Assembly: GCA_963733715.1 (NCBI GenBank)
Contig: CAVTEN010000039.1
Coordinates: 13,074-77,073 of the forward strand
DNA from: an uncultured delta proteobacterium
GTDB taxonomy: Bacteria; Desulfobacterota; Binatia; Binatales; Binataceae
Direction: 5' to 3'
DNA: 64,000 nt
Below the pieces are notes generated by a model, which was given only the letters and a program-made list of their open reading frames with translations, ran no database searches and was not told the DNA's origin. The stretch's first letter is position 1; every line of letters begins with the position of its first letter. This document shows positions 13,118 to 61,914 of the stretch, in pieces. A program made the position numbers and the translations under genes.

Positions 13118-13254
13118 TGAAACTTACTCCCGTGGATAATTGGCGTGAGCGTGAAACACCTGACGCCTCTGTTTCGCACGGCGAACCGCGGAGGGTCAAC
13201 CACCCTTCTTTTTCCCGTCCTCGGATTCAGCACTGCGCGCAACCGACTCCGCGT

Positions 13255-13296
13255 CCGGTTCCCCTTCCCGCGCGGGAAGGGGTTAGGGGTTAGGTT
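13255..13296 (+). repeat. REP family A copy 2
   Basis: CCGGTT-CCCCTTCCC-GCGC-GGGAAGGGG-TTAGGGG-TTAGGTT in a divergent intergenic region. Confidence 0.9.
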
Positions 13297-13357
13297 GCAA
13301 GCATCCGCAGTTCGCGCACTTGTGCGGCGACGCGAAATCGTGGAGAGGATTACCTCC

Positions 13358-34201: not shown

Positions 34202-34280
34202 CGGAGGAGGCTGTCTACTGCGCGCGAGGAACCATCTTCTGATCTTCTTCCGCTTTCCGCTTGGGAAGGCCTCCTCTTAT

Positions 34281-34322
34281 CTGGTTCCCCTTCCCGCTCG
34301 GGAAGGGGTTAGGGGTTAGGTT
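34281..34322 (+). repeat. REP family A copy 3
   Basis: CTGGTT-CCCCTTCCC-GCTC-GGGAAGGGG-TTAGGGG-TTAGGTT. Confidence 0.9.
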
Positions 34323-34348
34323 TCTGCTCCTCTCGCCCCACTTCCACG

Positions 34349-36590: not shown

Positions 36591-36656
36591 CCCCTTCCCA
36601 TAGTGGGAAGGGGAACCGGATTTCAGAGAGACCCTCCGCATGGGAGGGGAACCGGA
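36578..36656 (-). repeat. REP family A copy 4 plus a degenerate tandem half-copy
   Basis: ACCTAACCCCTAACCCCTTCCC-ATAGT-GGGAAGGGGAACCGG (36578-36619), then ACCCTCC-GCAT-GGGAGGGGAACCGGA (36631-36656). Confidence 0.85.
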
Positions 36657-46470: not shown

Positions 46471-46498
46471 GCGACGAACACCGCGTAAGCGACGAACA
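46463..46498 (+). repeat. perfect 18-bp tandem duplication
   Basis: CCGCGTAAGCGACGAACA x2, including the stop codon of the radical SAM gene. Confidence 0.9.
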
Positions 46499-46514
46499 GC
46501 GGCAATCTCGAAAT

Positions 46515-46982
46515 CCGGTTCCCCTTCCCGCGCGGGAAGGGGTTAGGGGTTAGGTTCTTTGGCAGTGCCAACCCGCTTATGACGCATGGCAGTAAAATAA
46601 CGCGCGTCCAAGGTGTTCAGGCTGACAAGCTGTCTTTCGCCAAACGCTTGCGCCGCGAAATGACTCCGGCCGAGCGCATTCTCTGGAAGACCCTTCGGCG
46701 AAATGCGATCGACGGGTTTCACTTCCGGCGACAGCAGATAATCGAAGGATATGTCGTCGACGCCAAGCTTGCGATCGAACTTGATGGCGGAGTGCATGAA
46801 GAACAGTGGAAGTACGATGAGTCGCGTGACCGAACGATCTCACTCGCGGGGGTACAGGTGCTTGGGATTTCGAATGAGGCGATGCTCGATAGCGAAGCGG
46901 TGGTTGAGTACATCAGGCAAGCATTGCGAAAGAGATCAGGAACCTAACCCCTAACCCCTTCCCGCGCGGGAAGGGGAACCAG
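46515..46982. mobile_element. REP-A / DUF559 / inverted REP-A cassette 1
   Basis: Perfect 41-bp inverted repeats 46517-46557 and 46940-46980 (GCGC loops) flank a single DUF559 gene. Mobility is inferred. Confidence 0.6.
46579..46947 (+). CDS. DUF559 (Vsr-like) endonuclease with an internal 5-aa deletion
   Basis: 'EMTPAE..LW..LR','FRRQ.II.GYVVD-----AKLAIELDGGVH','D..RD'; the stop codon falls in the REP. Confidence 0.85.
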   Translation: MTHGSKITRVQGVQADKLSFAKRLRREMTPAERILWKTLRRNAIDGFHFRRQQIIEGYVVDAKLAIELDGGVHEEQWKYDESRDRTISLAGVQVLGISNEAMLDSEAVVEYIRQALRKRSGT

Positions 46983-47021
46983 ATTATTGGAAGTATCGCG
47001 CGCAGATTTTCGGTATCCGCA

Positions 47022-47444
47022 CTACTGGAGTGTCGTGAAACTCGCGACCGGGCTTTTCACGCCGTCGCTCTGGCCAGTCGCCTCCATCGAGTCAACTGTG
47101 TAGTAGTAGGTCGTTCCTGGACTGAGCCCCAACACACGCACGCGGAAAATCGTATCTGGATGGGTCTGGTTCAGCCTGATGTGCGACTTCGCCATCTGGC
47201 TCAAGTTGTGCGGATCCGTACCGTAATGCAGGACAGCCCAATGATCGTCCGAGCCCCCGGGGTTGTTGCTGGTCCACCTGATAATCGCCCAATTGTTCCT
47301 GGCCAATTCGAGCGACGGCCCTTGGGTGATCTGAACGCGTGCGGCTCTCCTGGCTGGAGTAACCAGCTGAGCGAAGGTCGTGGTTGAGAAGAACAGACTG
47401 CCGGTCAGCACCGTGATCGCCAATCTCAGAAGTGCTCTTTTCAT
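47022..47444 (-). CDS. small secreted fibronectin type III (PAP N-terminal-like) protein, copy 1
   Basis: Signal peptide; 'WAIIRWTS','LHYGTDP','V.GLSPGTTYYY.V','SFTT'. Confidence 0.85.
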   Translation of the reverse strand: MKRALLRLAITVLTGSLFFSTTTFAQLVTPARRAARVQITQGPSLELARNNWAIIRWTSNNPGGSDDHWAVLHYGTDPHNLSQMAKSHIRLNQTHPDTIFRVRVLGLSPGTTYYYTVDSMEATGQSDGVKSPVASFTTLQ

Positions 47445-47503
47445 CTTCAAGCCCGAAGAGATTTTTTTGAGTGAAATATGATCGTTCGCAGTCTCTTACT
47501 CCA

Positions 47504-47536
47504 GCTCGTCCGCCCGCATTTGCGAGACGGACGAGC
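47504..47536 (-). other. conserved intergenic RNA hairpin, copy 1
   Basis: Minus strand GCTCGTCCGTCTCGC-AAAT-GCGGGCGGACGAGC: 15-bp stem with two G-U pairs. Confidence 0.65.
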
Positions 47537-47556
47537 CAGAGAAAGATGTGTCAGCC

Positions 47557-49371
47557 CTACGGTATTGGGTTCGGCGAGGGCAAAGGCGAAGCCTGGCAAA
47601 TAGCCGCCGCGCACGTCGGCAGAGGCATCGGAGCGGGAATGAGAACGTTATTCCCCTGGGTCGTAGCCGAACCGCCCGTCATACAGGTACCGGTAAAGGT
47701 ATTGATGTCGGGATACGGTGTGGTGAAGCCATCGTTTAGCGTTTGCATGAAGGCAACGATCTGGTTCTCCTCCGTATCGCTCAAGCCGAGGTTTCCGACC
47801 GTCATGTCGATATTGTTCGGGACTTCGGGCTGCGGCCAGCAGTCGACCTTTTCAGTTTTTCCCTGTGGGCAGTTTCCGGAAGTGACGGGCTCCGGAAACA
47901 CGTCGCGCGTATTGTAGAAATGAACCAGTTGCTTGAGGCTCTTGGCGTAGCCGTTGTGAAATAATTCCTTCTGGAAGAACGGTATCGGATTCCCGTTCGC
48001 ATCGACCTGACCGGCCTCTGTGGTCGGACACTGGGGCGGCGTCAGGGCTACATCGCGCACGGTAGCGGTCTGCATCTGGCCGTCGGAAGTTGGTGCAAAT
48101 TGTGTGAAATTCGAGTCCGGATTGGGCGCCGAGCCAGGGCCGCTTCTAAGGAATGTGCCTAGTCCCAAATCTCTGAAGGCGAAGCCGAATGGATTCGGGG
48201 TAAACCCGAAGAAATCAGGTGTGGTCTGATAATAGAAAGCATCCCTGGGATTGAGCGGCAGTCCTAGATTGGCGTAGCCGAAGCAGGTGAACAGAGGCCT
48301 GGTAGACGCCGCGGCACCGGTGTCGGTCTGGCCCCCTGTCAGAGCGGTGGATCTTCCGTCGAGGTGGCAGGAATTGCAGTTGGCTTTGCCCTTGAAAAGA
48401 TTGTAGCCAGCCATCTCGTCTGCGCTCAGTGTGGCACTCCCTGCCAGGAAGGCGTCGAATTTCGAGGAAAAGGCGCTGACATCAATTGAGCGTTCGTAGA
48501 ATGAAACGGACTGGCCCCAGTGATCAAAAACATTGTTGGCCTTGGTGCGGTCATCGGGCTTTAGCTCCACTGGCTCGACGTTGGTGCCGAACACCGCCGC
48601 CCCTCCAGGGGTTTCGCAGATACTCTCGGTATTGTTCGGGAACTTGATATCGAGGGAATCGGCGCCCCATATCTCCTCGAAGAGAGGCGCGTACGCAGCC
48701 TGGGAGATCCGGAACGCGATGCAAGCCGTGTCGGGGAAGCCCATTTCCTGGGTATCAACCGGCGGATGCTGCGCCTGCTCGGCGTCGGGACTCTGCAGCT
48801 TGTATCCAGTCGAGCGCCCATCCCAGAAGTTTCCGCCAAAGAACGCGGCCTGCGTTGGGTCGAACTCGAACACCGGGAAATCGGGTGAATAGGTGTATCG
48901 CGGCGCGGTCCGCTTTCCGGCCCTGAAGTGAAACGTTCCCGGATACGCGATCATCGTCAGATTGACCGACGGGATCGGTCCGCTGAAGGCGACGTACGGC
49001 ATGTGGCACGAAGCGCAAGCCTCATTCCTGAAAGGAGACATATTCAGATCGAAATTCAGCAGTTTGCCGAGCACTTCCACGGCTTGATATCCGCTGCCCT
49101 GAATGGTGGGAGGGTTACCTGTGATCATCGGCGTTGGTAACGCCGAAGCCTGTCCTAGCGCTTCATTTTCGATGAACCCAACTTCGCGCTGAACCCGTGC
49201 TATCTCAGAATCCAAATCGGCCGGTAGAATGCCAGACGGATACGGGTTGTAAATTGCAGGTGATGGTGTCGCGACAGGTTTTTCTGCCGATGTGAGATGA
49301 GGATTTACGAACAGCGTGGCCACAAGGATTGCACAGACCACCAATAGTGGCAGCAGTTTCATTCGTTTCAC
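47557..49371 (-). CDS. diheme cytochrome c peroxidase superfamily protein (MauG/BthA-like), copy 1
   Basis: Signal peptide; CASCH and CNSCH heme motifs; 'FWDGR'; 'FHNG...LVHFYNTRD'; 'GNLGL...E..IVAF..TL.DG'. Confidence 0.9.
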   Translation of the reverse strand: MKRMKLLPLLVVCAILVATLFVNPHLTSAEKPVATPSPAIYNPYPSGILPADLDSEIARVQREVGFIENEALGQASALPTPMITGNPPTIQGSGYQAVEVLGKLLNFDLNMSPFRNEACASCHMPYVAFSGPIPSVNLTMIAYPGTFHFRAGKRTAPRYTYSPDFPVFEFDPTQAAFFGGNFWDGRSTGYKLQSPDAEQAQHPPVDTQEMGFPDTACIAFRISQAAYAPLFEEIWGADSLDIKFPNNTESICETPGGAAVFGTNVEPVELKPDDRTKANNVFDHWGQSVSFYERSIDVSAFSSKFDAFLAGSATLSADEMAGYNLFKGKANCNSCHLDGRSTALTGGQTDTGAAASTRPLFTCFGYANLGLPLNPRDAFYYQTTPDFFGFTPNPFGFAFRDLGLGTFLRSGPGSAPNPDSNFTQFAPTSDGQMQTATVRDVALTPPQCPTTEAGQVDANGNPIPFFQKELFHNGYAKSLKQLVHFYNTRDVFPEPVTSGNCPQGKTEKVDCWPQPEVPNNIDMTVGNLGLSDTEENQIVAFMQTLNDGFTTPYPDINTFTGTCMTGGSATTQGNNVLIPAPMPLPTCAAAICQASPLPSPNPIP

Positions 49372-49904
49372 GATCAGACTCCTCCATGAAACTCAATGGT
49401 TGAAGCTCCCGGGCGTTTTTTGCGAATGAAGTATTCGAACGGATCGCCAGATTGGGGCGTGAAAACTCGCTTCACAGAATTTCGCGGGTCGAAGACATCG
49501 GGAGAGATATATCGGGAATTTCTCAGGCGGTCGGTGCCGGGATTTTTCAGCGCTCCTGATTCGATGATGCATTACATCTTCTGGATGGCTCGTCCGATTC
49601 GCGGCCGAACGGCCGTTACAGCATTGGCTCCAGAAGCCACAATGGATGACGGTTGAGCCGAAGTGCTCAAGAGGCAGGAACGGGAGTTCGGTTTGCGGCC
49701 CACGCGCAAGTGCCGGCCGTGAAAGTAGCGTTCACAGCCACGAGCATCGCCTTCACGCGTATCGCAAAAAGGGTTTGGAAAATGTGGTACCCACACCGCC
49801 ATCCGCGAGACCGGCGCGATCCGAATCAGGATCGCGCCGGTTTGCTTGTCGGGTAATGACAGCAGTATCGGCGCGAGGCTATCGTTGCGCCGATTGTGCC
49901 TGCG

Positions 49905-50327
49905 CTATTGGAGCGTGGTGAACCGCTCAACCGAGCTCTTCACGCCGTCGCTCTTGCCAGTCGCCTGCATGGAGTCGACTGTGTAGTAGTAGGTCGTTCC
50001 CGGATTGAGGCCCAACACGCGCACGCGGAAAACCGTATCCGGATGGCTCCGGTTCAGCCTGATGGGAGATTTCGCCATCTGGTTCAAGTTCTGCGGATCT
50101 GTACCGAAGTGCACGATGCCCAAATGCTCGTCGGTACCTCCGGGGTTGTTGCTGGTCCACGTGATAATCGCCCAATTGCTCCTGGCCAATTCGAGCGACG
50201 GCCCTTGGCTGATCTGGACGCGCGCAGCGTTCTTCGCCGGAGGAAGTAGCTGAGCGATAGTTGGGTTGGAGTAGAGCAGTCCGCCGCTGACAACCATGAT
50301 CGCCAATATCAAAACCACTCTCTTCAT
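49905..50327 (-). CDS. small secreted fibronectin type III protein, copy 2
   Basis: Close paralog of 47022-47444 ('QGPSLELAR.NWAII.WTSNNPGG'). Confidence 0.85.
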   Translation of the reverse strand: MKRVVLILAIMVVSGGLLYSNPTIAQLLPPAKNAARVQISQGPSLELARSNWAIITWTSNNPGGTDEHLGIVHFGTDPQNLNQMAKSPIRLNRSHPDTVFRVRVLGLNPGTTYYYTVDSMQATGKSDGVKSSVERFTTLQ

Positions 50328-50394
50328 AATTCGAACCCCGGAGAGCATTGCTCGGTGAGAGTTGAACGACCCAACCTTAACCGCCATCGACGCC

Positions 50395-50429
50395 GGCTCG
50401 TCCGCCCGCATTCGCGAGACGGACGAGCC
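50395..50429 (-). other. conserved intergenic RNA hairpin, copy 2
   Basis: Same stem as 47504-47536 with the loop changed from AAAT to GAAT and one extra G-C pair. Confidence 0.65.
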
Positions 50430-50471
50430 AGAGAAGGGATGTCTTGAGCATCCACAGTTCAGCGCCTTGAC

Positions 50472-52316
50472 CTATGGAATAGGACTCGGCCCAGGCGTTG
50501 GCGCGATACCGCAGATGGCAGATGCGCACGGCGGCAGAGGCATCGGAGCTGGGATGAGCGAGCTATTGCCCTGGGTCGCAGCCGTACCGCCCGTCATACA
50601 GGTACCCGTATAGGTTCCGATGTCTGGATACGGCGTTATGTAACCGTCCGTGAGCGTTTGCAGGAAGGTAACGATCTGGTTCTCCTCGGTGTCAGTCAAG
50701 CCCAGTTTTCCGACCGTCATGTCGAGATTGTTCGTGACCTCGGGCGTCGGCCAGCAGTTTACCTTTTCGACTGTTCCTGCCGGGCAGTTTCCGGAAGTGA
50801 CGGGCTCCGGAAACACGTCGCGCGTGTTGTAGAAATGAACGAGTTGCTTCAGGCTCTTGATGTAGCCGTTGTGAAAGAACTCCTTCTGGAAGTAGGGCCC
50901 GGGTGCCTCGGTAGTGGGACACTGTGGCGGCGCCAGGCCCACATCGCGCGCGCTGGAGGTCTGCATTTGGCCGTCGGTCAACGGCGCATACTGTGTCCAT
51001 GCCGAGTTTGGATTATCCCAAGTGCCGAAGCCGCTCCTCAGGAAAGTGCCAAATCCCAAATCCCGGTACCCGAAGCCGTAAGGATTGGGCGTAAATCCGT
51101 AAAAATCCGGCGTGGTTTGATAGTAGAAAGCATCCCTTGGGTTGAGCGGCAGACCTAGATTCGAGTAGCCGAAGCAAGTGAACAGAGCCCTGGTAAGCGC
51201 CGGGGTTCCAGTGTCGGTCTGGCCTGGTGTCAGGGTAGTGGATAGTCCGTCGAGATGGCATGAATTGCAATTGCCTTTGCCGTTGAAGAGCGCGTAACCC
51301 GCCGCCTCGTCTGACGTCATGGTGTAGTTGCCCGCTATAAAGGCGTCGTACTTCGAGGTGAACGCGCTGACCCTAATTGAGCGCTCGTAGAAAGAAACGG
51401 ACTGCGCCCAATGATCGAAAGCATTGTTGGCCTTGGTGCGATCCTCGGGCTTTAGCTGAACTGGCTCGACGTTCGTGCCGAACACCGACGCCCCTCCGGG
51501 GGTTTCGCAGATACTCTCGGTATTGTTCGGGAACTTGATATCGAAGAGGGAACCGGCGCCCCATACCGCCTCGAAGAGAGGTGCGTAAACAGACTGGGAA
51601 ATCCGGTACGCGATGCAAGCAGTATCGGGGAAGCCCATTTCTTGCGTATCAACCGGGGGGCCCTGCGACTGGTTGGCGTCAGCACTCTGCAGCTTGTAAC
51701 CGGTCGCTCGTCCGTCCCAGAAATTTCCGCCAAAGAACGCGGCCAAGGGTACCGGCGGTGTCTGATTGACCAGTGCTGGGTCGAGCTCGAGTACAGGAAA
51801 ATCTGGAGCGTAGGGGTATCGTTGCGCGGTCCGCTTTCCGGCCCTGAAGTGAAAGGTTCCCGGATACGCGATCATCGTCAGGTTGACCGACGGGATCGGC
51901 CCACTGAAGCCGGCGTACGGCATGTGGCAGGAAGCGCACGCCGTATTCCTGAAGGGGGATATGTTCAGATCGTAATTCAGCAGTTTGCCGAGCACTTCTA
52001 TTGTTTGATATCCGCTGCCGTGAATAATCGGAGGGTTAGTCGTAAACGTGAGCGGTGGCAACGTGGCAGACTCACCGAGCGCCTCATTTTCGATGCCAGT
52101 AATTTCGCGCTGAACCCTCATTAACTCCGAATTCAGGTCGTCCGGTAGAATGCCAGACGGCACGGCAGACGGAATGTCAGACGGGTACGGGTTGTAAAGC
52201 ATTGGTGATGGAGTAGCTATCGGTTTTTTTGCTGATATGGGCGGAGGACCGATGAACAGCGTAGCCACGAGGATTGCAAGGACCGCCGATAGTGGTATCA
52301 ATCTCATTCGTTTCAT
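50472..52316 (-). CDS. diheme cytochrome c peroxidase superfamily protein (MauG/BthA-like), copy 2
   Basis: CASCH and CNSCH; 'FWDGR'; 'FHNGYIKSLKQLVHFYNTRD'; close paralog of copy 1. Confidence 0.9.
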   Translation of the reverse strand: MKRMRLIPLSAVLAILVATLFIGPPPISAKKPIATPSPMLYNPYPSDIPSAVPSGILPDDLNSELMRVQREITGIENEALGESATLPPLTFTTNPPIIHGSGYQTIEVLGKLLNYDLNISPFRNTACASCHMPYAGFSGPIPSVNLTMIAYPGTFHFRAGKRTAQRYPYAPDFPVLELDPALVNQTPPVPLAAFFGGNFWDGRATGYKLQSADANQSQGPPVDTQEMGFPDTACIAYRISQSVYAPLFEAVWGAGSLFDIKFPNNTESICETPGGASVFGTNVEPVQLKPEDRTKANNAFDHWAQSVSFYERSIRVSAFTSKYDAFIAGNYTMTSDEAAGYALFNGKGNCNSCHLDGLSTTLTPGQTDTGTPALTRALFTCFGYSNLGLPLNPRDAFYYQTTPDFYGFTPNPYGFGYRDLGFGTFLRSGFGTWDNPNSAWTQYAPLTDGQMQTSSARDVGLAPPQCPTTEAPGPYFQKEFFHNGYIKSLKQLVHFYNTRDVFPEPVTSGNCPAGTVEKVNCWPTPEVTNNLDMTVGKLGLTDTEENQIVTFLQTLTDGYITPYPDIGTYTGTCMTGGTAATQGNSSLIPAPMPLPPCASAICGIAPTPGPSPIP

Positions 52317-52835
52317 GACCTAACTCCTCCACGAAACTCATTTGTTGAAACTCTCGGGCGTTTTCTTTGCGGATGAATTATCTCGGGCGTAGCACCTCAG
52401 TTATGGACCTGGCGTTAGACGCACATCTGCGCAGACGCTCTCCGCGCCCACACCTGGTCGGTTAAGTGGATTGGAATTGCGTACTCTGCTGGCGGGAACG
52501 AGTATTCACTCTGGACGCTCCAGAGAAACGGTTCGCAATTTTTTTCGGGCAACTTTGTGGACGTCCCTGTTGATCCTCCGGGACGTCCTTCGCGGAACGG
52601 CTCGCGAAATGGCTAAGGCCAGTTGAAAACGGCTCTTATTGATCCTGAATAGCGCCGCGGCGAAATTGGGTCAAGCGAAATTGATGGCTCCGCAAGAGAC
52701 CGTGAGCAAGATCGCCCTATGTACTTTTTGGCTGCTAACTGCTCCTAACAGTCGCATCGGCGCCGAACTGTCCGCGTCCCGCTTGCGCCAGCGCCATGTA
52801 AACAGCTAGGGATTTCTGCGGGGAATTCAATATTT

Positions 52836-53624
52836 ATGTTCACGCCGGTTGAAATCGTCATTGCCGTTGTCGTCCTTGCGGCAATGATCTTCGTTCCAAT
52901 TATGCGCCGATTGCTCGGACTGATTATCCGCCTTGCGGTTTTTTTCGTCGCGGTCGGAATCGTGGCCGCCGGGGTCACGATGATCATGAACAACGAAACG
53001 ATCTTCGAACGGCCGGGCATCGGGCAGCGCGTCGAAAGATTCCTCACGCTGAACTCCGCGGCCGCCAGCACAACCGGCTCGGGCTCGGTGACGTGCGTGA
53101 TTGAAAGTCCGCCACCGCCGGCGCCAACTGCTGTCGAGGCCAAGCCGCACAAGCACGCCGCGAAAAAAGAGCCTGAGATTCAAACCACTCGAAACGACTT
53201 GTCGAAGGCTGAGCCTGCTCCGCTCGATGATATCTTTCCCGAATTGATTCGCCGCGGCTTTCCCGGAATTTCGCGCGAGAAGCTGTTCCAGCTCTCGACC
53301 GATACGGTCAACTCGCTGGGCGGATGGAGGATCGCCAAATCCAGCCCGGGCAACTTTACTCTCGATACCATCTACACGTCGCGAATTTTCAAATTCGAGG
53401 ACGACGTAAGAATCACGATCGACCCGTCCGGCGATATTGAAGTATGCGCGCGTTCCGGCCTGGCGCGCCCCGGCACAACCTCATTACTGCGTTACTTCCC
53501 CGGCGACCTCGGCTCAAACGTCGGACACATCAAACAATTCTACGAAGTCCTCGAGCCAAAAATGGACGAGGTTTATAAGGAAGAGCAGGACAAGCAGAAC
53601 GCGAAGAAGCCCCCGCAGCAATGA
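52836..53624 (+). CDS. membrane-anchored DUF1499-like protein
   Basis: Two N-terminal TM helices; C-terminal 'FKFEDDV.I.I...I.V.ARS...GDLGSN..HI' resembles DUF1499. Confidence 0.65.
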   Translation: MFTPVEIVIAVVVLAAMIFVPIMRRLLGLIIRLAVFFVAVGIVAAGVTMIMNNETIFERPGIGQRVERFLTLNSAAASTTGSGSVTCVIESPPPPAPTAVEAKPHKHAAKKEPEIQTTRNDLSKAEPAPLDDIFPELIRRGFPGISREKLFQLSTDTVNSLGGWRIAKSSPGNFTLDTIYTSRIFKFEDDVRITIDPSGDIEVCARSGLARPGTTSLLRYFPGDLGSNVGHIKQFYEVLEPKMDEVYKEEQDKQNAKKPPQQ

Positions 53625-53653
53625 TCACGCTGCGCCGCTTCTTGTTCTTTTAT

Positions 53654-53695
53654 CTGGTCCCCCTTCCCGCGCGGGAAGGGGTTAGGGGTTAGGTT
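53654..53695 (+). repeat. REP family A copy 7
   Basis: CTGGT-CCCCCTTCCC-GCGC-GGGAAGGGG-TTAGGGG-TTAGGTT. Confidence 0.9.
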
Positions 53696-53768
53696 CTTCG
53701 ACGCATCCACACTTTCCGCCGCGCTCGCTTTTGACAACACGCACTCGATCCGGTCAAGCTGTGATCGT

Positions 53769-54044
53769 ATGGCGATGCGGGAGGCTCAGATCGATGCGCT
53801 TGCGACTCATCTCGTGAATGGGTTGATCGATCGCGGCGTGATCAAACCCAAGGCCGACGTCAAGGAACTGATCGCGTGCGTGGTCGAGCTGATGTCGGAG
53901 AATTTCGAGACCGAAGCGCAAATCGACGAAGAAGCCGACAAGATGGCGGAGGTCGAAGCCCGCCGGGACACGCGCCTCGACGTCACGCGGCTACGGAACC
54001 TGATTCGCCAGCGTCTGGCCGAGAAGAAAAACTTCACGCTCTAA
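53769..54044 (+). CDS. DUF507 family protein
   Basis: 'E.QID.LA..LV..L','ENF..E..IDEEA','R.RLA.KK.F.L'. Confidence 0.75.
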   Translation: MAMREAQIDALATHLVNGLIDRGVIKPKADVKELIACVVELMSENFETEAQIDEEADKMAEVEARRDTRLDVTRLRNLIRQRLAEKKNFTL

Positions 54045-54047
54045 TCC

Positions 54048-54326
54048 ATGAAACTTACCGAAGCACGAGTCCTGTTCCTGGCGCGCGAGTCATTGGCAAA
54101 ATTGCGCGACGAGGGCCTGGCCGAGATCACAAACTTTCCACTCGCACTCCGGCAGGCGCGCGAAATCGTCGCGCAGTTCAACGAGCAAGGCGACGAAATC
54201 GACGCGATCGTGCGGCGCAAGATCAATTCGATCAAACGCGGCATCGTCGAAGGCTCCAACGAATGGACCCTGCTGTACAAACGCTACCGCGACGAAGAGA
54301 TGCGGAAGAAGGGGCCGCAGAGGTAG
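54048..54326 (+). CDS. DUF507 family protein
   Basis: 'MKL.E.RV.FLA...L..L','ID..VR.KI.S.KR.I.EGS.EW..LY.RY..EE'. Confidence 0.85.
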   Translation: MKLTEARVLFLARESLAKLRDEGLAEITNFPLALRQAREIVAQFNEQGDEIDAIVRRKINSIKRGIVEGSNEWTLLYKRYRDEEMRKKGPQR

Positions 54327-54696
54327 AAGTCGCCGGCGGGGAACATAATTAAATGTGAAACCCGCGGTGGGTTTCACGCTTCCTTCGGCAGGGGTGACCC
54401 CTGCACCCAGTGCTAATCGCAAAATGGCGAGGACGCCCTTTTGCTCTCAGCTTCTTTTCCTGTGTCATTCAGTTCTTGTGTCATTCAGAGCGAAAGCTGC
54501 TGTAGCGAAGAATCCCGGTCCGAATTACCTCTCCCGCGGACGGCGACTTGTCGCCGCCCGCAAACCGGGAGAGGTCGTCTGACGACATTCATGTCGTCGG
54601 ACGGGTGAGGGCCTCGGCATCGCGCTGAATACGAGCGCCTTCACCCGCCGCTTCGCGCGTACCGCCTCCCGGCTGCGCTTTGATACACTCACCAAC

Positions 54697-55026
54697 ATGG
54701 ACGACAACGAATTTCGCGAGCGTTCCGATGCTGCGCTCACCAAGGTCGCGAAGTGGCTCGAGGACCTCGATCCTGACGAAGTGGATTACACCACTGCCGA
54801 CGGCATCGTGACGATCGAGTTCGCGGGCGGCGCGAAGTTTATTTTGTCGCGGCAATCGCAGATGAAACAGATGTGGCTGGCGGCCGGCTCTCATGGGTTC
54901 CACTACAATTGGGATGCGGCGCGCAACTTGTGGATCGACGACAAGGACGGCCACGAATTGTTCCCACGCCTGACCGAAACGATATCCGAGCAACTCGGGC
55001 ATCCTGTCGATGAGCCTGGACACTGA
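54697..55026 (+). CDS. cyaY: iron donor protein CyaY (frataxin)
   Basis: 'MDD.EF...SD..L', 'GIVTIEF..G.K.ILSRQ....QMWLA..SHG.HY'. Confidence 0.88.
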   Translation: MDDNEFRERSDAALTKVAKWLEDLDPDEVDYTTADGIVTIEFAGGAKFILSRQSQMKQMWLAAGSHGFHYNWDAARNLWIDDKDGHELFPRLTETISEQLGHPVDEPGH

Positions 55027-56167
55027 CGTAATCGTAATTGGAGCAGGGCCGGGAGGATGTGCGGCTGCAATCAGGCTGGCTAGCGCCGGGTACGACGTGA
55101 TCGCGCTCGAGCGCAAGGAACGCGAGGACGGCGAAGATATCACGTCAGGCGAAGTGATGGTCGTGCCGACGCAGAACGAATGCGCGCAGCTCGCGGTTAA
55201 GTTCGAAGGCGACTGGGTCCTCGACCGAATCACCGGCTTCCGCAACGTCTATCCCGATCTGTCCTGGACGTATCATCCGATTCCCGCGAAGGTATTTCCG
55301 GTGCAGGTTGATCGCGGCGGATTCAATGCCGCGCTCCGTCGCAGGTTGATCGAAGCCGGCGGGCGGCTGGTCTGGAACGCGCGTGTCACCGACCTGGAAT
55401 TTCGCGACGATGCCGCAATCGCGATCACGGCCGACCTCAAGCGCTACTCAGCGCGCATGCTGATCGACGCCGGCGGACGTTACGCGCCGTCGCTGCGCGC
55501 TCTGAATCTGAAGTCCGAGGATCCGGAGTTCTCGCAAATCGGCGTCGCCGTCTTCTTCAAGTCGTTCGACGGCACGCCCCTCAATACGTGGGACCGCCAT
55601 CTGTACGGCGTGCGCGGCGCGATGATCAGCGGCTCGCGCATTCGGCCGGGGCTGTATCGATATATCCTCGAAGCGGATCTCGCCGAGAAACAAAGCGACC
55701 GGCTCGGCGCGATCGAATTTTACGAGTCAGTCGCACGGCATCATGATGCGTGGCTCTACGAACGCGTGATGCGAGAGCCGCGGGTGGGCCGGCAATGGTC
55801 GATGGCGCCGCTCGGGTATCGCGTGAGCGACGTCGCGCGCGACCGACTGCTTTTGGTTGGAGATGCGGCAGGATATCTCTCGCCGATAACAGGGCAGGGC
55901 AACGAATTCGCGCTGCGGACAGGGCGCCTGGCTGCAAGTGCCGCCGATGAGGCTTTGCGAGGCGGCGATCTATCGGCAGGAGCGTTCGCGTCGTACATCG
56001 CGGGCCGCAGATTCGAGGTCGAGCGCCAGGTCGATTACGTCCGAGCGCAGTTGCGAATCCTGCGCGACCCCGCCGCGCTGCTGAGGGCGTCGCGGGATGA
56101 TGCGTATCGCGCGCAAATTTTCGGTCCATATGGGATCCCTGCGAGTGATCGCGGCTCCCTGGTTTAA
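55010..56167 (+). CDS. FAD-dependent oxidoreductase (geranylgeranyl reductase-like)
   Basis: 'VIVIGAGPGG','VDRG.F...L','IDA.G','LLVGDAAG...P.TGQG'. Confidence 0.88.
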   Translation: MSLDTDVIVIGAGPGGCAAAIRLASAGYDVIALERKEREDGEDITSGEVMVVPTQNECAQLAVKFEGDWVLDRITGFRNVYPDLSWTYHPIPAKVFPVQVDRGGFNAALRRRLIEAGGRLVWNARVTDLEFRDDAAIAITADLKRYSARMLIDAGGRYAPSLRALNLKSEDPEFSQIGVAVFFKSFDGTPLNTWDRHLYGVRGAMISGSRIRPGLYRYILEADLAEKQSDRLGAIEFYESVARHHDAWLYERVMREPRVGRQWSMAPLGYRVSDVARDRLLLVGDAAGYLSPITGQGNEFALRTGRLAASAADEALRGGDLSAGAFASYIAGRRFEVERQVDYVRAQLRILRDPAALLRASRDDAYRAQIFGPYGIPASDRGSLV

Positions 56168-56182
56168 GGACATCTCCTTGAT

Positions 56183-56250
56183 AGTGGGGCGGGCCGCCGT
56201 GCCCGCCATCGACTCGCGGAGGGGAGGCGGGCACGGCGGCCCGCCCCACT
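56183..56250. repeat. perfect 25-bp inverted doublet (REPIN-like)
   Basis: AGTGGGGCGGGCCGCCGTGCCCGCC (56183-56207) and its exact reverse complement (56226-56250). Confidence 0.85.
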
Positions 56251-56355
56251 CAATGAAACAGCCCCACTGCTGACTGAAACCCAGGACACCAAACACCGCA
56301 ATCCACGACCTTATCCACAGGACTTGCAATTCTTTGGGATCTGGCTAAGATGCCG

Positions 56356-56410
56356 TTAGCACTCAGACGTTGCGAGTGCCAATTGACAAAACCCGGACAG
56401 TAATTAACTT
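56356..56410 (+). promoter_or_regulatory. CIRCE element (HrcA operator) abutting a sigma70 promoter
   Basis: TTAGCACTC-N9-GAGTGCCAA at 56356-56382, then TTGACA (56383-56388) and TAACTT (56405-56410), upstream of groES. Confidence 0.92.
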
Positions 56411-56476
56411 CCGACCGCGGGAATCGTCCCGTTAAGCAACACTTTTCGTAAGCCATAAGGAGGCTGCTGGTTCGCC

Positions 56477-56767
56477 ATGAAAGGATTAAGGCCATTGGGA
56501 GATCGAATTCTCGTCAAGCGCGTTAAGGAAGAGGAGCGGACCAAGGGTGGCATCATCATCCCGGACACCGCCAAGGAAAAACCGCAGGAGGGCAAAATCG
56601 TTGCCGTCGGCAAGGGCAAGTACAGCGACGACGGCAAGCTTATCCCGATCGAAGTGAAGCCGGGGGACAAAATTCTGTTCGGCAAGTATTCGGGCAGCGA
56701 GTTCAAGCTCGAGGGCGAGGACCTGCTCATCCTGCGCGAGGACGACATCCTGGGAATCATCGACTAG
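56477..56767 (+). CDS. groES: co-chaperonin GroES
   Basis: '[32 protein letters not shown]'. Confidence 0.98.
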
Positions 56768-56823
56768 GCAATCGCGCTCTTCAAATGAGTGCCAGTTTCT
56801 AACCACTAAAAAAAGAAAAATAG

Positions 56824-58476
<1,653 letters not shown>

Positions 58477-58500
58477 TTCAGGAACAAATCTGAGACTGAC

Positions 58501-58539
58501 ACAGCGGCGGAGCCATCGAGGTTCCGCCGCTGTTTTTTT
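58501..58539 (+). terminator. intrinsic terminator of groESL
   Basis: ACAGCGGCGGAGCC-ATCGA-GGTTCCGCCGCTGT followed by a T run. Confidence 0.9.
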
Positions 58540-58549
58540 GGAGAGCAGG

Positions 58550-58590
58550 AACCTAACCCCTAACCCCTTCCTCGAGGGAAGGGGAGCTGG
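58550..58590 (-). repeat. REP family A copy 8
   Basis: AACCTAACCCCTAACCCCTTCC-TCGA-GGGAAGGGG-AGCTGG. Confidence 0.85.
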
Positions 58591-58901
58591 AATAGGTGGA
58601 GTCACCTCTTCCCTTGAACAGGAAGCTGAACAAATCGTCATTGTGTCACTGTCATGCAACAAATCACTTGCGTGCAACGCTGATCGTGAATTCCGATCAT
58701 AACGAGGCGGATCGGACTGCACTCAAATAGTCAATTAAGTGGCTTCCAATCGCATTTGGCTAGTCTGTTCAGAAATCGGACAGTCGCCTTCGAGGCGCGC
58801 AGTTCTTGGCCCCGCCCTTGCTAAATACCCCATACGGATCGCAGCTGTGTGACGCCTTGGGGACTGGGCTGGCGCAGTGCTCGTCCATGGAGGTGCCGCT
58901 G

Positions 58902-59318
58902 ATGGCAGTACGAGTGCTCATTGCGGACAGCTCGGGGATCACGCGGGACATCATGCGCAATCATCTGGAATGCGGCGGATGTCAGATAGTAGCGGAGACC
59001 GAGACGGTCGCGCAGACAATCGATCTCTTCCGCACTACGCGGCCGGATGTCGTCACGCTCGACATCGGGCTGCGTAGTGAGCGAGGGCTCGACGGCTTGT
59101 CGCTGTTCAGGATGATTCGCCGCGAATCGCCGGACACGTCGATCGTGATGGTCAGCGCGTCGCAGGCACCGGACGACAATCGAATCTACCTGCGCGAGGG
59201 CGCGCTCGAATGTATCGTCGAGCCATTTGACAGTTATGGGCTGGAGCGGATGTGGCGGCGACTGTCGGACATCTACCCCGAGCTCAGACGCCGCGACGAG
59301 GCGGCGTCGGGGCGCTGA
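58902..59318 (+). CDS. stand-alone response regulator receiver domain (atypical)
   Basis: 'RVLIADS','PDVVTLDI','IVMVSA','GALECIVEPF'; GGAGG RBS before ATG 58902. Confidence 0.85.
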   Translation: MAVRVLIADSSGITRDIMRNHLECGGCQIVAETETVAQTIDLFRTTRPDVVTLDIGLRSERGLDGLSLFRMIRRESPDTSIVMVSASQAPDDNRIYLREGALECIVEPFDSYGLERMWRRLSDIYPELRRRDEAASGR

Positions 59319-59334
59319 AATAGCTAACCGACCA

Positions 59335-60108
59335 TCAGTCTGTCGAACGCTCTAGCGCAACCATCAGGCGTTCGATTAAGAGGGGCTGGCCGGGGATGCA
59401 ATTGATCCAGAGCACCCATCCCGAATTCTCGCTCGAGTAGAGCGGCGCCGGGGTGCCGCAATAAAATGCGCGCGTCGAGCCCTGCGACACGTCGCTCAGC
59501 ACGTGCACGTGGCCGAGCGCGACGTAGTCGTAATGCGAGCGCTGGATGTCCGCCGGCGTGATCGGCGACGATCTCTCAATCTCGCCCTCCTCCATGAAGA
59601 AGCCGTGCGCGAGCGCGATGTTCCAGCGTCCTTCCGCCGGCTCGGGTACGCCGCTCATCGGGCGATAGTCGGGAGTATGCTCGACCAGCGCGCGGCCCCA
59701 TACGCGAGTCGCCAGATCGGGGAAATCGATCGTCCTGCCTTCGGGCTCGAGAATCAGGTGCAGGTTTTCCGGAAGAACGCCGGGCGCGAGGCCGGCGTAA
59801 ATCGATCGCTCGTCGTGCGCGTCATGGTTGCCTGGGATCATCACGACCGGCATCTGCGCCCGCGCAATCGTGCCCATCGCGAACGCGAGGCCTTCCTCGG
59901 TGACGCGCGCCGAATCGAAAAGATCGCCGACAATCAGCAGCATGTCGGCGTGGCGCTCGTTGGCGATGTCGATGACGCGGCTGAATGCGGTGCGCACTTT
60001 GTCGCGCAACTGGATGCCGCGCTCGCCGGATCCGAACGTGTCAGTCTCGAGATGAACGTCGGAAGTATGGAGGATCTTGAGTGGGCGATGCGGCAGCTTA
60101 GCTGGCAA
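59335..60108 (-). CDS. Mre11/SbcD-like metallophosphoesterase
   Basis: 'LHTSDVHL','VGDLFD','IPGNHD','LAHG','YVALGHVH'. Confidence 0.9.
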   Translation of the reverse strand: MPAKLPHRPLKILHTSDVHLETDTFGSGERGIQLRDKVRTAFSRVIDIANERHADMLLIVGDLFDSARVTEEGLAFAMGTIARAQMPVVMIPGNHDAHDERSIYAGLAPGVLPENLHLILEPEGRTIDFPDLATRVWGRALVEHTPDYRPMSGVPEPAEGRWNIALAHGFFMEEGEIERSSPITPADIQRSHYDYVALGHVHVLSDVSQGSTRAFYCGTPAPLYSSENSGWVLWINCIPGQPLLIERLMVALERSTD

Positions 60109-60241
60109 AATTGAGTCCTTCGATGCGCCAATTCGGTCGTGGGCGCTCAGTTCCGGTCGATGCGGACATGCTGTAGAGTCAGATTTACTAGAGTTCGGGC
60201 GCCCATACCACCGCAAAGCGTTATCGCAGAGGGCTTATCAC

Positions 60242-61261
60242 TTGATCGTCGTAATGAAAGCGCATGCCACTGAAGCCGAGATTCAGGCCGTAGCCAGGAT
60301 GGTCGAGGAACTCGACTACAACGCGCACATTATTCGCGGCATCGAGCGCACCGTCGTCGCATGCGTCGGCGATGAGCGCGGCGAGAAGCATCAACTGACG
60401 CATCTCGAGTCCGTGGCTGGGGTCGAGCGCGTGATGCCGGTGGTGCGGTCGTTCAAGTTGTCGTCGCGCGAGGTGCGCCCCGAAGGATCGATAGTCAAAG
60501 TCGGCGGCATGGAAATCGGCGGCAAGCGAATCGCGGTGATCGCGGGACCGTGCGCAATCGAAAGTGAGGAGCAAGTAGAAGCCGCGGCAGATGCGGTGAA
60601 AAAAGCGGGCGCGCATGCGCTGCGCGGCGGAGCATTCAAGCCGCGCACGTCGCCGTACTCGTTCCAGGGAATGGAAGAAGAGGGACTCGTGTTGCTCGAG
60701 CACGCCGGGCGGCGCGTCGGATTGCCGGTGGTGACCGAGATTATGGACCCGCACGATATCGACCTGGTCGCCGAGCATTCCGACATGCTGCAGGTCGGCG
60801 CGCGCAATGCGCAGAATTTCTCGCTGCTGCGCCGTCTCGGCAGGATCAAGAAGCCGGTGCTGCTCAAGCGCGGCATGTCGATGAAGCTCGAAGAGTTCAT
60901 GATGGCGGCGGAATATATTTTGTCGGAGGGCAATCCCAACGTCGTGCTATGCGAGCGCGGGATTCGCACCTTCGAGACCGCGACGCGCAACACGCTTGAT
61001 CTGAACGCCGTGCCGCTGCTCAAGGAATGGACGCATCTGCCGGTGCTGGTCGATCCGAGTCACGGGACTGGAATCTACAAGATGGTGGCGCCGATGGCTC
61101 TGGCAGCGATCGCAGCGGGTGCCGACGGCCTGCTGATCGAAGTGCATCCGAAGCCCGAGGCCGCGCTGTCCGACGGCCCGCAGCAATTGAAACCGTCGCG
61201 CTTCGCCGATTTGATGAAGACGCTGAAGCCGCTGGCGGAGGCGGTCGGAAGAACGCTGTAA
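60242..61261 (+). CDS. aroF: DAHP synthase, class I-beta with N-terminal ACT domain
   Basis: 'IAGPCAIES','RGGAFKPRTSPYSFQG','QVGARN.QNF','LKRG','CERGIRTFE','DPSHGTG'. Confidence 0.95.
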   Translation: MIVVMKAHATEAEIQAVARMVEELDYNAHIIRGIERTVVACVGDERGEKHQLTHLESVAGVERVMPVVRSFKLSSREVRPEGSIVKVGGMEIGGKRIAVIAGPCAIESEEQVEAAADAVKKAGAHALRGGAFKPRTSPYSFQGMEEEGLVLLEHAGRRVGLPVVTEIMDPHDIDLVAEHSDMLQVGARNAQNFSLLRRLGRIKKPVLLKRGMSMKLEEFMMAAEYILSEGNPNVVLCERGIRTFETATRNTLDLNAVPLLKEWTHLPVLVDPSHGTGIYKMVAPMALAAIAAGADGLLIEVHPKPEAALSDGPQQLKPSRFADLMKTLKPLAEAVGRTL

Positions 61262-61278
61262 TTGGCGGTGCGATTTAT

Positions 61279-61755
61279 CCGGTTCCCCTTCCCACTATGG
61301 GAAGGGGTTAGGGGTTAGGTTGCTTTCGTCCAAGCGCCTCCCTGATGTAGTCGACCGCCGCTTCAACATCGATCATCCCCTCGTTCGGAATTCTGAGGAC
61401 CCGAACCCCCGCCCGAATGATGGTTTTGTCACGCGATTGGTCGTACTTCCACTGTTCCTGATGAACCCCTCCGTCTAGTTCGATCGCCAATTTGGCGGCT
61501 GCGCAATAAAAGTCGACCACATATCCTTCGATTACCTGCTGGCGGCGAAAGTGAAATCCGTCGATCGCATTCCGTCGAATGGCGGCCCAGAGTCTGCGCT
61601 CCGCAGGAGTCATCTCGCGCCGCAATTGCTTCGCGAGAGACAGCTTGTCTGGTGACACACGTTTGCCACGCGTGACTTTGCGGCTTGGTGTCATAGGCAT
61701 AGCGCGTTCCAGATTACCTAACCCCTAACCCCTTCCCATAGTGGGAAGGGGAATC
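61279..61755. mobile_element. REP-A / DUF559 / inverted REP-A cassette 2
   Basis: Perfect 38-bp inverted repeats 61283-61320 and 61716-61753 (ACTAT loops) flank an intact DUF559 gene. Mobility is inferred. Confidence 0.6.
61308..61700 (-). CDS. DUF559 (Vsr-like) endonuclease
   Basis: 'EMTPAE..LW','FRRQQVIEGYVVDFYC...LAIELDGGVH','D..RD','GVRVLRIPN'; ends 'PNP*' inside the REP. Confidence 0.92.
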   Translation of the reverse strand: MPMTPSRKVTRGKRVSPDKLSLAKQLRREMTPAERRLWAAIRRNAIDGFHFRRQQVIEGYVVDFYCAAAKLAIELDGGVHQEQWKYDQSRDKTIIRAGVRVLRIPNEGMIDVEAAVDYIREALGRKQPNP

Positions 61756-61914
61756 AAATTGAAGAGCACTTCCGGTGCCGGAAGGGGAACAAGATAAAAC
61801 ACCCCCTACCTATGGGTTGCACTCGGAATGTATCGGCGCTATTTCGGACAATGATCCTCGCTCGAGGTGCTGAGCAACGTTTCCCTAACTCAGATCGCGA
61901 AAGGAGTAATTGTC

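Follow-up and report, generated by a model that had tools for sequence, protein, structure and literature searches.

A 64,000-nt stretch of a Candidatus Binatus genome (the window) carries two small nuclease genes, each enclosed by inverted hairpin repeats that also occur elsewhere without any gene, and the question arises what unites the nuclease with its repeats. An earlier note on this DNA had described two DUF559 cassettes bounded by REP elements (here, REP-A), and the measured layout bears this out. Each cassette is about 470 bp long (46512-46985 and 61283-61753) and contains one DUF559 (Vsr-like) gene flanked by inverted repeats, which are 46 nt long and 98% complementary in cassette 1 and 38 nt long and 100% complementary in cassette 2. 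The 5'-side terminal repeat of cassette 1 (inverted repeat I1, 46512-46557, plus strand) consists of the outer sequence AATCCGGTT, the hairpin CCCCTTCCC-GCGC-GGGAAGGGG (-10.1 kcal/mol, modelled as ssDNA), the linker TTA and the G-rich tail GGGGTTAGG; the ORF of 122 aa follows (46579-46947, plus strand), and its stop codon is located inside the CCTAACC tail of the 3'-side repeat, an inverted REP-A copy with the loop GCGC (46940-46985, minus strand). The intact ORF of cassette 2 (61308-61700, 130 aa) is encoded on the minus strand; the repeat at its 3' side (61279-61324, plus strand, arm 61283-61320, hairpin -11.6 kcal/mol, z -3.1) contains the last codons and the stop codon of the gene (QPNP, then stop), and the repeat at its 5' side (61712-61757, minus strand) includes the arm 61716-61753. 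The adjoining edge of this cassette (61758-61805) is rearranged and holds a 35-nt insertion that includes a partial second copy of the hairpin arm (…CCGGAAGGGGAACAAGATAAA); the insertion is missing in the orthologous cassette of a sister species. In both cassettes, the G-rich tails (GGTTAGGGGTTAGG) are directed inward and the 3' repeat provides the stop codon, a feature shared by all A-type cassettes. The nuclease gene is the sole ORF in each cassette, with no transposase there; the inspection of neighbouring genes, including a radical-SAM gene, a DAHP synthase gene and a glyoxalase-fold gene, revealed neither a methyltransferase gene adjoining either cassette nor a recombinase gene nearby, and a terminator consensus scan of the cassette ends found none.

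The assignment of DUF559 to Vsr-like nucleases of the PD-(D/E)xK type agrees with the protein comparisons. Both ORFs score above the curated PF04480 cut-off (90.4 and 110.2 bits versus 20.6), with E-values of 8.8e-26 for cassette 1 and 5.9e-32 for cassette 2. Residues D63, E74, D76 and H80 make up a core (D ... E-x-D ... H) that is invariant across 39 sequences and present in the 61308-61700 protein; the structure model (pLDDT 77) has a predicted Vsr-like fold, with 3HRL, 3R3P and 1CW0 as the best matches. 3HRL is itself an uncharacterised DUF559 protein; after it, I-Bth0305I, a homing endonuclease, comes nearest in structure among relatives with a known function (TM-score 0.73 on the target, E 6e-4). 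The two cassette proteins have diverged, as had been noted, being 70% identical with dS of about 1.0, and the 46579-46947 protein may be impaired, having an in-frame deletion of five residues (FYCAA) immediately after the catalytic Asp, beside D63. Genomes of this group carry several divergent DUF559 paralogues, as well as pseudogenes; the dN/dS values of the paralogous genes (0.06-0.19 at dS from 1.0 to >3, with synonymous sites saturated) point to purifying selection on the proteins, and the repeat ends of the paralogues are near-identical despite the saturated synonymous divergence of the genes.

The search of the window with the core GGGAAGGGGTTAGGGGTTAGG, allowing up to three mismatches, gave ten matches, all with 0 or 1 mismatch, versus 0 expected from 100 shuffles; these are the four cassette ends and the six solo copies counted previously. 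The solos occupy positions 2082-2128 (core at 2103, plus strand, degenerate, with part of the pyrimidine arm missing and one core mismatch), 13253-13299 (core at 13274, plus strand, loop GCGC), 34279-34325 (core at 34300, plus strand, loop GCTC), 36574-36620 (core at 36579, minus strand, loop ACTAT), 53652-53698 (core at 53673, plus strand, loop GCGC) and 58547-58593 (core at 58552, minus strand, one mismatch); the spacer of the fifth contains no copy in congener G006, and congener G009 has no copy corresponding to the last. Genome-wide, 127 REP-A copies were found at up to one mismatch (65 forward and 62 reverse), among about 192 hairpin-plus-tail motifs of all types; about 125 are solos, and the cassette ends are represented by about 130-150 copies versus only four for the cassette interior. 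The modelled REP-A hairpins range from -10 to -11.6 kcal/mol, and target duplication was absent at every offset around 115 solos. The loops of the solos include ACTAT (47), TCGA (23), GCTC (20) and GCGC (9), and the matched loops of the cassettes are simply the REP-A subfamilies of the genome. The claim that every cassette has its own matched loop pair holds for both cassettes of the window (GCGC/GCGC in cassette 1, ACTAT/ACTAT in cassette 2) and fails for the C35 cassette, one of the four canonical cassettes of the genome, which combines an ACAT loop at one end with GCGC at the opposite end.

REP-A had been taken for a new REP type, and this part of the earlier reading has to be given up, since REP-A is, judging from its arms and tail, a member of the published class of G/C-rich intrastrand triplex motifs (TM/TMECO, the same as BoxC and PIT elements), which are present in E. 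coli and in more than 260 further genomes of bacteria (Holder et al. 2015, PMC4666352). Like those motifs, REP-A has a pyrimidine arm, a loop of 3-6 nt, a purine arm, a 3-nt linker (TTA) and a mirrored G-rich third strand, is dispersed through intergenic DNA at tens to hundreds of copies with no bias for either strand, forms inverted pairs in part and marks local rearrangement hot spots. The triplex rule, which makes the tail a mirror image of the purine arm (G opposite G, either A or T opposite A), is obeyed at 8/9 positions in REP-A (CCCCTTCCC-loop-GGGAAGGGG-TTA-GGGGTTAGG), 8/8 in REP-B and 9/9 in the C20 family, and across families by 35 of 63 distinct arms, versus 14.2 ± 2.8 (maximum 21) with the tails permuted. 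The stem (CCCCTTCCC/GGGAAGGGG) and the tail (GGGGTTAGG) of REP-A differ from the TMECO consensus CCCTCNCCC N3-6 GGGNGAGGG N3 GGGNGAGGG, and therefore REP-A represents a different sequence family of the same class; REP-B (CCTCTCCC..GGGAGAGG..GGTGAGGG) is close to this consensus, but its linker is 5-6 nt long. Holder et al. reported no mobility-related genes near the motifs and mentioned neither DUF559 nor ycjD (PMC4666352), whereas every DUF559 gene in the Binatus genome is framed by such motifs.

This framing extends well beyond the window, as had been anticipated. All ten DUF559 (PF04480) genes of the genome are bounded by hairpin-plus-G-tail repeats of at least four families; five tight inward REP-A pairs exist, 389-407 nt apart, and all five enclose a DUF559 gene, the next inward pair being 1327 nt apart. 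No gene-free tight inward REP-A pair was found in the genome, where REP-A solos are singlets. At 80 loci from at least six phyla, repeats are 36-fold denser within 300 nt of the gene than further out (4.56 versus 0.125 per kb). The suggested co-variation of protein and repeat was found as well: a GGAAGGG-type hairpin lies beside 69 of 80 A-type genes and, among 30 non-A genes from the same bacterial family, beside only one (Fisher 2e-16). The protein clade predicts the hairpin sequence across six phyla. The association of DUF559 with the repeats is real, specific and general; the literature search found no paper describing the pairing of DUF559 with triplex-type repeats. Phage-borne DUF559 relatives mostly lack the repeats. 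The same Binatus genome contains a second family, in which a B-type DUF559 gene is accompanied by REP-B; REP-B forms five inward doublets, 153-298 nt apart, and the B-type derivatives include gene-less two-ended minis, multiplied together with their internal sequence, and one cassette with an internal deletion. These minis and the deleted cassette parallel the MITEs of transposons.

The comparison of congeners located empty-site alleles: both cassette sites of the window are unoccupied in most congeners, and congeners carry cassettes in other spacers, including those corresponding to 54324-54676 and 56164-56298, the latter being empty in the window and filled by an A-type DUF559 cassette in congeners G009 and G011. 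Another cassette, between the orthologues of C16:23529 and 23400 of the Binatus genome, fills a spacer between convergent genes. A clean comparison of a filled with an empty site revealed no target duplication or footprint, the empty sites of the congeners have no alignable common sequence, and the cassettes are not in an intron or intein. Some cassettes have interiors 85-88% identical and unrelated flanks. The two ends of a cassette at an orthologous locus show identities of 97.8% and 90.9%, compared with 81.9% for its gene and 78-81% for its flanks. The ends are far more constrained than the gene or the flanks, and the gene with its ends has been inherited and relocated as a single unit over the time of species divergence. 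The occupation of different sites in related species matches what is expected of an element without a classical transposase, in line with the earlier suggestion of a transposase-free selfish package. No cassette copies more than 95% identical were found at different sites, and therefore the activity, if any, is slow. Among 40 congeners, the median number of REP-A copies is 85 in genomes with a close A-type gene (n=15) and 5 in those without (n=25; p 1e-6); at the family level, REP-A is present in 11/11 genomes with an A-type gene, and the gene is present in 0/42 REP-A-free genomes. REP-A abundance thus tracks gene presence, with exceptions: four genomes without a close A-type gene bear 117 (G111), 55 (G013), 52 (G095) and 16 (G077) copies, some of these genomes being incomplete MAGs.

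The best explanation, which we hold to have a nearly even chance of being right, is that the cassette is a small selfish element, a gene for a Vsr-fold DUF559 nuclease between inverted repeats of the intrastrand-triplex type, with the solos as its gene-less relatives. The nuclease would recognise its cognate repeat, either folded on the G-rich strand (into a hairpin or a triplex) or as a duplex, and would nick or cut there; host repair copying from other repeats (homing-like gene conversion or template switching at hairpins) would keep the repeats alike, would seed new solos in intergenic spacers behind genes and, rarely, would copy an entire cassette. Such a repair-based route fits better than a DDE-type route because there is no target duplication. 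To our knowledge, a single-domain nuclease of 120-130 aa cannot perform strand transfer alone, which counts against this explanation, as do the variable repeat orientation across phyla, the scarcity of the repeats beside phage-borne relatives, the in vivo reading of Caulobacter VsrA as a mismatch repair nuclease and the genomes rich in REP-A that have no close A-type gene. A broader proposal is put forward more tentatively: stand-alone small DUF559 nucleases might be the missing cognate enzymes of BoxC/PIT/intrastrand-triplex repeats, the Vsr-fold nuclease reading the folded hairpin or triplex end, cutting it, multiplying and homogenising the repeats and keeping its own gene mobile.

Perhaps the repeats are instead spread and kept alike by another trans factor (the recombination or replication machinery of the host, or an enzyme encoded elsewhere), and DUF559 is trapped cargo with a different job, such as Vsr-type T:G nicking or defence. 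The genomes with 50-117 REP-A copies and no close A-type gene are consistent with this, as are the orientation of the repeats relative to the gene, which varies across phyla, the instability of triplex motifs in E. coli without any mobility gene (Holder et al., PMC4666352) and the behaviour of Caulobacter crescentus VsrA, a nuclease that acts across the genome in connection with cytosine methylation (PMC12907096). It is nevertheless rather unlikely, given that tight repeat pairs hold only DUF559 genes (10/10), that the hairpin follows the protein clade across phyla, that the stop codon lies within the repeat in all A-type cassettes and that the cassettes have neither a methyltransferase gene beside them nor an associated RAYT or other transposase; no RAYT was found near the repeats, and of two weak Y1 hits genome-wide, neither comes closer than 7 kb to any motif. 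If the hairpins acted on a potentially toxic nuclease gene by terminating transcription, by insulating it or by stabilising its mRNA, if the solos were REP-like and host-selected behind genes, and if gene and repeats both favoured spacers between convergent genes, one would understand why solos are enriched immediately past gene-like ORFs, on the 3' side (33% and 31% versus 7% at random positions), why the solo 58547-58593 directly follows a hairpin resembling an intrinsic terminator and why the cassette between the orthologues of C16:23529 and 23400 lies where it does. We consider this cis-regulatory role improbable, since the terminator scan of the cassette ends was negative and the covariation of the mirrored G-tail, the clade-specific hairpins, the multiplied two-ended minis and the inverted orientation of the upstream copy would be left unexplained.

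Slightly less probable still is a benefit to the host, with DUF559 as a structure-specific nuclease that processes hairpin or triplex DNA liable to stall replication and has its gene among the repeats for autoregulation; purifying selection on the proteins and the co-occurrence of the gene with a high repeat load would suit it, but the genes are not syntenic, each site being occupied in some congeners and empty in others, the gene is missing from many genomes rich in repeats, and several divergent paralogues and pseudogenes coexist within single genomes. DUF559 proteins are also over-represented among the inversion targets predicted in a published survey (PMC9881135; odds ratio 14.3), as if the inverted repeats served programmed gene inversion. 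This is very improbable, as the symmetric ends are located beyond the ORF or at its extreme end and inversion would therefore leave the coding sequence and any obvious promoter relation unchanged, no recombinase gene is near, and any gene framed by inverted repeats would yield the published enrichment.

Read as a selfish element, the cassette resembles the REP/REPIN-RAYT systems in having a nuclease gene between inverted hairpin repeats that are also dispersed without genes, in the lack of target duplication, in several cognate gene-repeat families per genome and in repeats that outlast gene loss. The differences are that a Vsr-fold protein of the PD-(D/E)xK type (PF04480) takes the place of the HUH Y1 transposase (PF01797), that the repeat has a mirrored G tail and no GTAG-type tetranucleotide, and that, unlike REPINs, REP-A solos are singlets and not doublets, although REP-B does form inward doublets. 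PD-(D/E)xK enzymes form no covalent DNA intermediate, and therefore the chemistry must differ from that of RAYT; if the broader proposal is true, DUF559 and its repeats would be a second system of this kind, a counterpart to the REPIN-RAYT partnership with a different chemistry. With MITEs and their parent insertion sequences, the cassettes share terminal inverted repeats, gene-less (the B-type minis) and internally deleted derivatives and presence that differs site by site between species, but no DDE or other transposase and no target-site duplication accompany them, and the majority of copies lacking the gene consist of one end only. Under the broader proposal, the nuclease would have three life forms: the autonomous cassette, the two-ended mini without a gene and the single solo.

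The modelled cassette nuclease structurally resembles I-Bth0305I of the Vsr-like EDxHD family, a selfish nuclease which, through break repair, favours the copying of the gene that encodes it (PMC3239194). That enzyme comes from a group I intron within a phage gene and possesses an additional domain for DNA binding (PMC3239194), whereas the cassettes described here stand free in intergenic DNA, with repeats as their frame. Vsr and C. crescentus VsrA share the fold and the catalytic core; VsrA, the one DUF559 protein examined in living cells, is able to damage chromosomal DNA there and is read as a T:G mismatch repair nuclease (PMC12907096). Both enzymes are connected with cytosine methylation and with T:G mismatches, with no repeat association described, while the cassettes have no adjacent methyltransferase gene. 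DUF559 is a possible partner enzyme for the long-unexplained class of BoxC/triplex repeats. In E. coli MG1655, where the arrangement is not a clean inverted frame, TMECO no. 9 lies 168 bp 3' of ycjD.

The earlier note had described two repeat-bounded DUF559 cassettes and six solo (single, gene-less) copies of the repeat REP-A in the window, and this description is correct with two qualifications, since the arms, the reading frames, the Pfam matches and ten repeat cores were confirmed. Cassette 1 comprises arms at 46512-46557 and 46940-46985 (46 nt each, 98% complementary) and a plus-strand ORF of 122 aa (46579-46947), and cassette 2 comprises arms at 61283-61320 and 61716-61753 (38 nt each, 100% complementary) and a minus-strand ORF of 130 aa (61308-61700); both Pfam DUF559 matches are far over the cut-off. 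From the outer to the inner side, the arm consists of TCCGGTT, the hairpin CCCCTTCCC-loop-GGGAAGGGG, TTA, GGGGTTAGG and TTSCY, and in both cassettes the stop codon of the gene lies inside the 3′ arm. The REP-A core occurs ten times in the window (four cassette ends and six solos) and zero times in shuffles. One qualification is that the protein encoded at 46579-46947 is missing five residues beside the catalytic Asp. The loops, claimed to match on the two sides of each cassette, do so in both window cassettes, but differ between the sides of the cassette on contig C35 of the same genome; matched loops correspond to the repeat subfamilies of the genome, where solos with ACTAT (47), TCGA (23), GCTC (20) and GCGC (9) were counted. 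The surroundings contain smaller rearrangements: 14 nt to the left of cassette 1, an 18-nt unit (CCGCGTAAGCGACGAACA) stands twice in tandem (46463-46498), taking in the stop codon of the radical-SAM gene, and congeners do not have this duplication. At the outer edge of cassette 2, 35 nt including a partial copy of a hairpin arm are inserted (61758-61805), as judged against the orthologous cassette in a sister species (L028), whose copy of the gene has a 1-nt indel.

The genome, a MAG of 5.58 Mb (41 contigs, 60% G+C, 78% complete), contains 132 REP-A cores (up to two mismatches) and ten DUF559 genes, five of which lie between inverted REP-A copies; only five inward REP-A pairs less than 1.3 kb apart exist in the genome, all around DUF559. 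The other five genes, one of them a pseudogene, are bounded by other hairpin-plus-tail repeats, including REP-B (CCTCTCCC..GGGAGAGG..GGTGAGGG), which frames some of them, and a further repeat, CCCTCCTCC..GGAGGAGGG-TTA-GGGTGGAGG; a generic scan counted about 192 motifs of such kind. Direct doublets account for 13 of the 132 REP-A copies (e.g., C37:28187, C30:36489 and 36683, C5:303213), and their upstream unit ends with GGGAAGRGGTTACTCC rather than the G-rich tail, as though a further unit had been inserted by copying behind the TTA linker. A third, divergent A-type (REP-A-paired) cassette lies on the window's own contig, 4.3 kb past the window end (C39:81414-81861); its 3′ repeat no longer carries the stop codon, and the reading frame extends to 228 codons. 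Other small repeat families cluster at 54324-54676, among them a REP-B-type triplex motif, the loop and linker of which each contain another hairpin, and an GTGTCATTC..GAAGAATC element also present at the DUF559 pseudogene on contig C4.

Judging from sequence, the repeat architecture is that of the G/C-rich intrastrand triplex motifs (TMECO, BoxC, PIT) of Holder et al. 2015 (PMC4666352), whose survey found neither transposase nor integrase remnants near triplex motifs and no mobility genes nearby. The tail is a mirror image of the purine arm in all families, as the triplex rule for purine motifs demands (G on G, A or T on A). Among 63 distinct, non-self-mirror arms adjoining DUF559 genes, 35 obeyed the mirror rule with at most one mismatch, versus 16 when the un-mirrored arm was compared with the same tails and 14.2 ± 2.8 (maximum 21 of 1000) when tails were permuted among arms. 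The modelled folding energy of the hairpin by itself, as ssDNA, is −10 to −11.6 kcal/mol. A G-quadruplex reading of the tail appears less likely: the mirror covariation is as expected from the triplex rule, and other families have no four good G runs. The tails of related cassette ends in three congeners (L025 in G016, L026 in G003, L022 in G009) contain one, two or three TTAGGGG heptads, resembling a telomere-type repeat. An Rfam search of the repeat revealed no relevant family.

A search with a four-protein alignment of the A-type protein yielded 80 loci (43-96% identity) in Binatia, Chloroflexota, Cyanobacteria, Latescibacterota, Gemmatimonadota, Fraserbacteria and other groups. The expected flanking of DUF559 genes by repeats was borne out across genomes, with at least one motif nearby at 77 of these loci; motif density was 4.56 per kb up to 300 nt from the gene versus 0.125 per kb beyond 500 nt. 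A GGAAGGG/GGAAAGG-type hairpin was found within 130 nt of the gene at 69/80 A-type loci versus 1/30 non-A DUF559 genes, the latter all taken from the window's own bacterial family and mostly having GAGAGG-type or GGGGAGG-type hairpins. Constant across loci is a minus-strand GGGAAGGGG-type motif, the C-rich tail of which contains or abuts the stop codon; in many other phyla, direct copies of a two-motif composite stand at the gene. Among 61 family genomes, REP-A was present in all 11 with an A-type gene, and none of the 42 REP-A-free genomes had such a gene. Across 40 congeners and the own genome, genomes that have a close A-type gene (n = 15) contained a median of 85 REP-A copies, and those lacking one (n = 25) a median of 5 (p about 1e-6).

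The gene and its ends form a package with evolutionary mobility, the ends being cognate and strongly constrained. The four A-type paralogues have dN/dS of 0.06-0.19 at dS from 1.0 to above 3, and their ends are nearly identical; at the orthologous locus shared by contig C15 and congener G009, identity is 97.8% and 90.9% for the two ends, 81.9% for the gene and 78-81% for the flanks. In at least 17 congeners, the genes left of both window cassettes align at 81-92% identity as far as the cassette boundary, where no cassette follows. Comparison of synteny over 15 kb with G009 and G006 indicated that the site of cassette 2 in G009 is a 96-nt spacer, and that a 6.3-kb segment (46477-52773), with cassette 1 as its left edge, is missing from both, their radical-SAM gene running directly into the sequence of window position 52774. 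Filled sites occur in congeners as well: 56164-56298 (135 nt in the window) is a cassette site in G009 and G011, and the spacer at 54324-54676 holds an A-type cassette in G006 and only 55 nt in G009. The solo at 53652-53698 is missing in G006. In G016 and G003, a cassette occupies the spacer between convergent genes, with flanks aligning to both stop codons, and the own-genome site contains a degenerate REP-B half; no target-site duplication was found in this filled and empty alignment, nor at solos (k = 3-6, any offset). Within the 6.3-kb segment, 47019-47800 has a 77% paralogue at 49902-50715.

Orthologous sites are shared as well, cassette 2 with the sister species and the C15 cassette with G009. 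Recent transposition was rejected, as no pair more than 95% identical at different sites was found, so any cassette activity would be slow; the best cassette pairs with unrelated flanks have 85-88% interior identity. The solos were rejected as cassette deletion remnants, because BLAST coverage showed only the ~46-nt end in common and the interior has 4 copies in the genome, compared with about 130-150 for the ends; similarity just inside solos is weak and confined to TTSCY. RAYT was rejected as the mobiliser (two weak Y1-transposase matches in the genome, at least 7 kb from any motif), as was a plasmid or phage vehicle (relatives in 43 of 72,556 plasmid records and 13 viral contigs, most of the latter without repeats). 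Exact-protein look-ups for strain-level alleles returned the same locus only.

The package also has gene-less relatives. REP-B inward doublets are 153-298 nt apart, and four of them are gene-less 230-310-bp elements whose ends (85-100 nt) have the same structure as B-type cassette ends. Gene-less two-ended B-type elements are located at C5:45873-46102, C23:133447-133676, C21:109001-109219, C5:76163-76383 and C35:84544-84774, the first four sharing internal sequence at their different loci, and an internally deleted B-type cassette is located at C23:25286-25648. All relate to the B-type DUF559 cassettes (C31:75572-76300 and C31:192484-193034) much as MITEs relate to their parent elements; a B-type protein is encoded at C31:75839-76150.

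Residues D63, E74, D76 and H80 are invariant across 39 sequences, 3HRL is the only solved relative by sequence, and the structure model (pLDDT 77) is closest to 3HRL, followed by the homing endonuclease I-Bth0305I and then by the PvuRts1I/AbaSI nuclease domains and Vsr. The favoured reading is that the cassette is a small selfish element, the nuclease of which would recognise and cut its own repeat; break repair may then spread and homogenise the repeat copies. The main weaknesses of this reading are the repeat-rich genomes that have no close A-type gene (G111 with 117 copies, G013 with 55, G095 with 52, G077 with 16) and the variable repeat orientation, both tails pointing inward in Binatia and outward in a few others. 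The same genomes would also fit DUF559 as a passenger gene, a weaker reading. Weaker, too, is an inversion switch formed by the inverted repeats. The searched literature mentioning DUF559 contains no link to flanking repeats, the nearest items being a table row that gives DUF559 as enriched among predicted inversion targets (PMC9881135) and a study of C. crescentus VsrA (PMC12907096). A cis-regulatory role of the flanking hairpins is likewise less convincing than the selfish element, and a promoter and terminator consensus scan of the cassette ends gave no match. DUF559 as a host structure-processing nuclease also ranks below the selfish element.

Catalogues of BoxC, PIT and triplex-motif repeats go back to the 1990s, and such repeats were shown to form triplexes and to be markers of unstable loci; we know of no origin, spreading mechanism or partner protein for them. 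DUF559 is a very large family with no assigned function, E. coli YcjD being a member, and repeat-nuclease symbioses are, to our knowledge, so far known only for RAYT. Cognate pairing, if true, would mean a testable function for the two orphans and a second enzyme class beside RAYT, and would hint at a protein reading non-B DNA, possibly a structure-specific tool. The genome is a favourable test bed, combining several cognate gene-repeat families, intact and decayed genes and gene-less derivatives with many congeners in which sites are filled or empty.

The ycjD gene of E. coli MG1655 was rejected as a clean example: a single canonical motif, TMECO no. 9, lies 168 bp downstream, not forming a clean frame, and the stop region has a degenerate CCCTCTCCC..GAGGGGG hairpin at the gene end. 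At this locus (L001, 1351204-1351760), a partial duplicate of the ycjD 3′ end is found downstream of the gene, followed by triplex motif no. 9.
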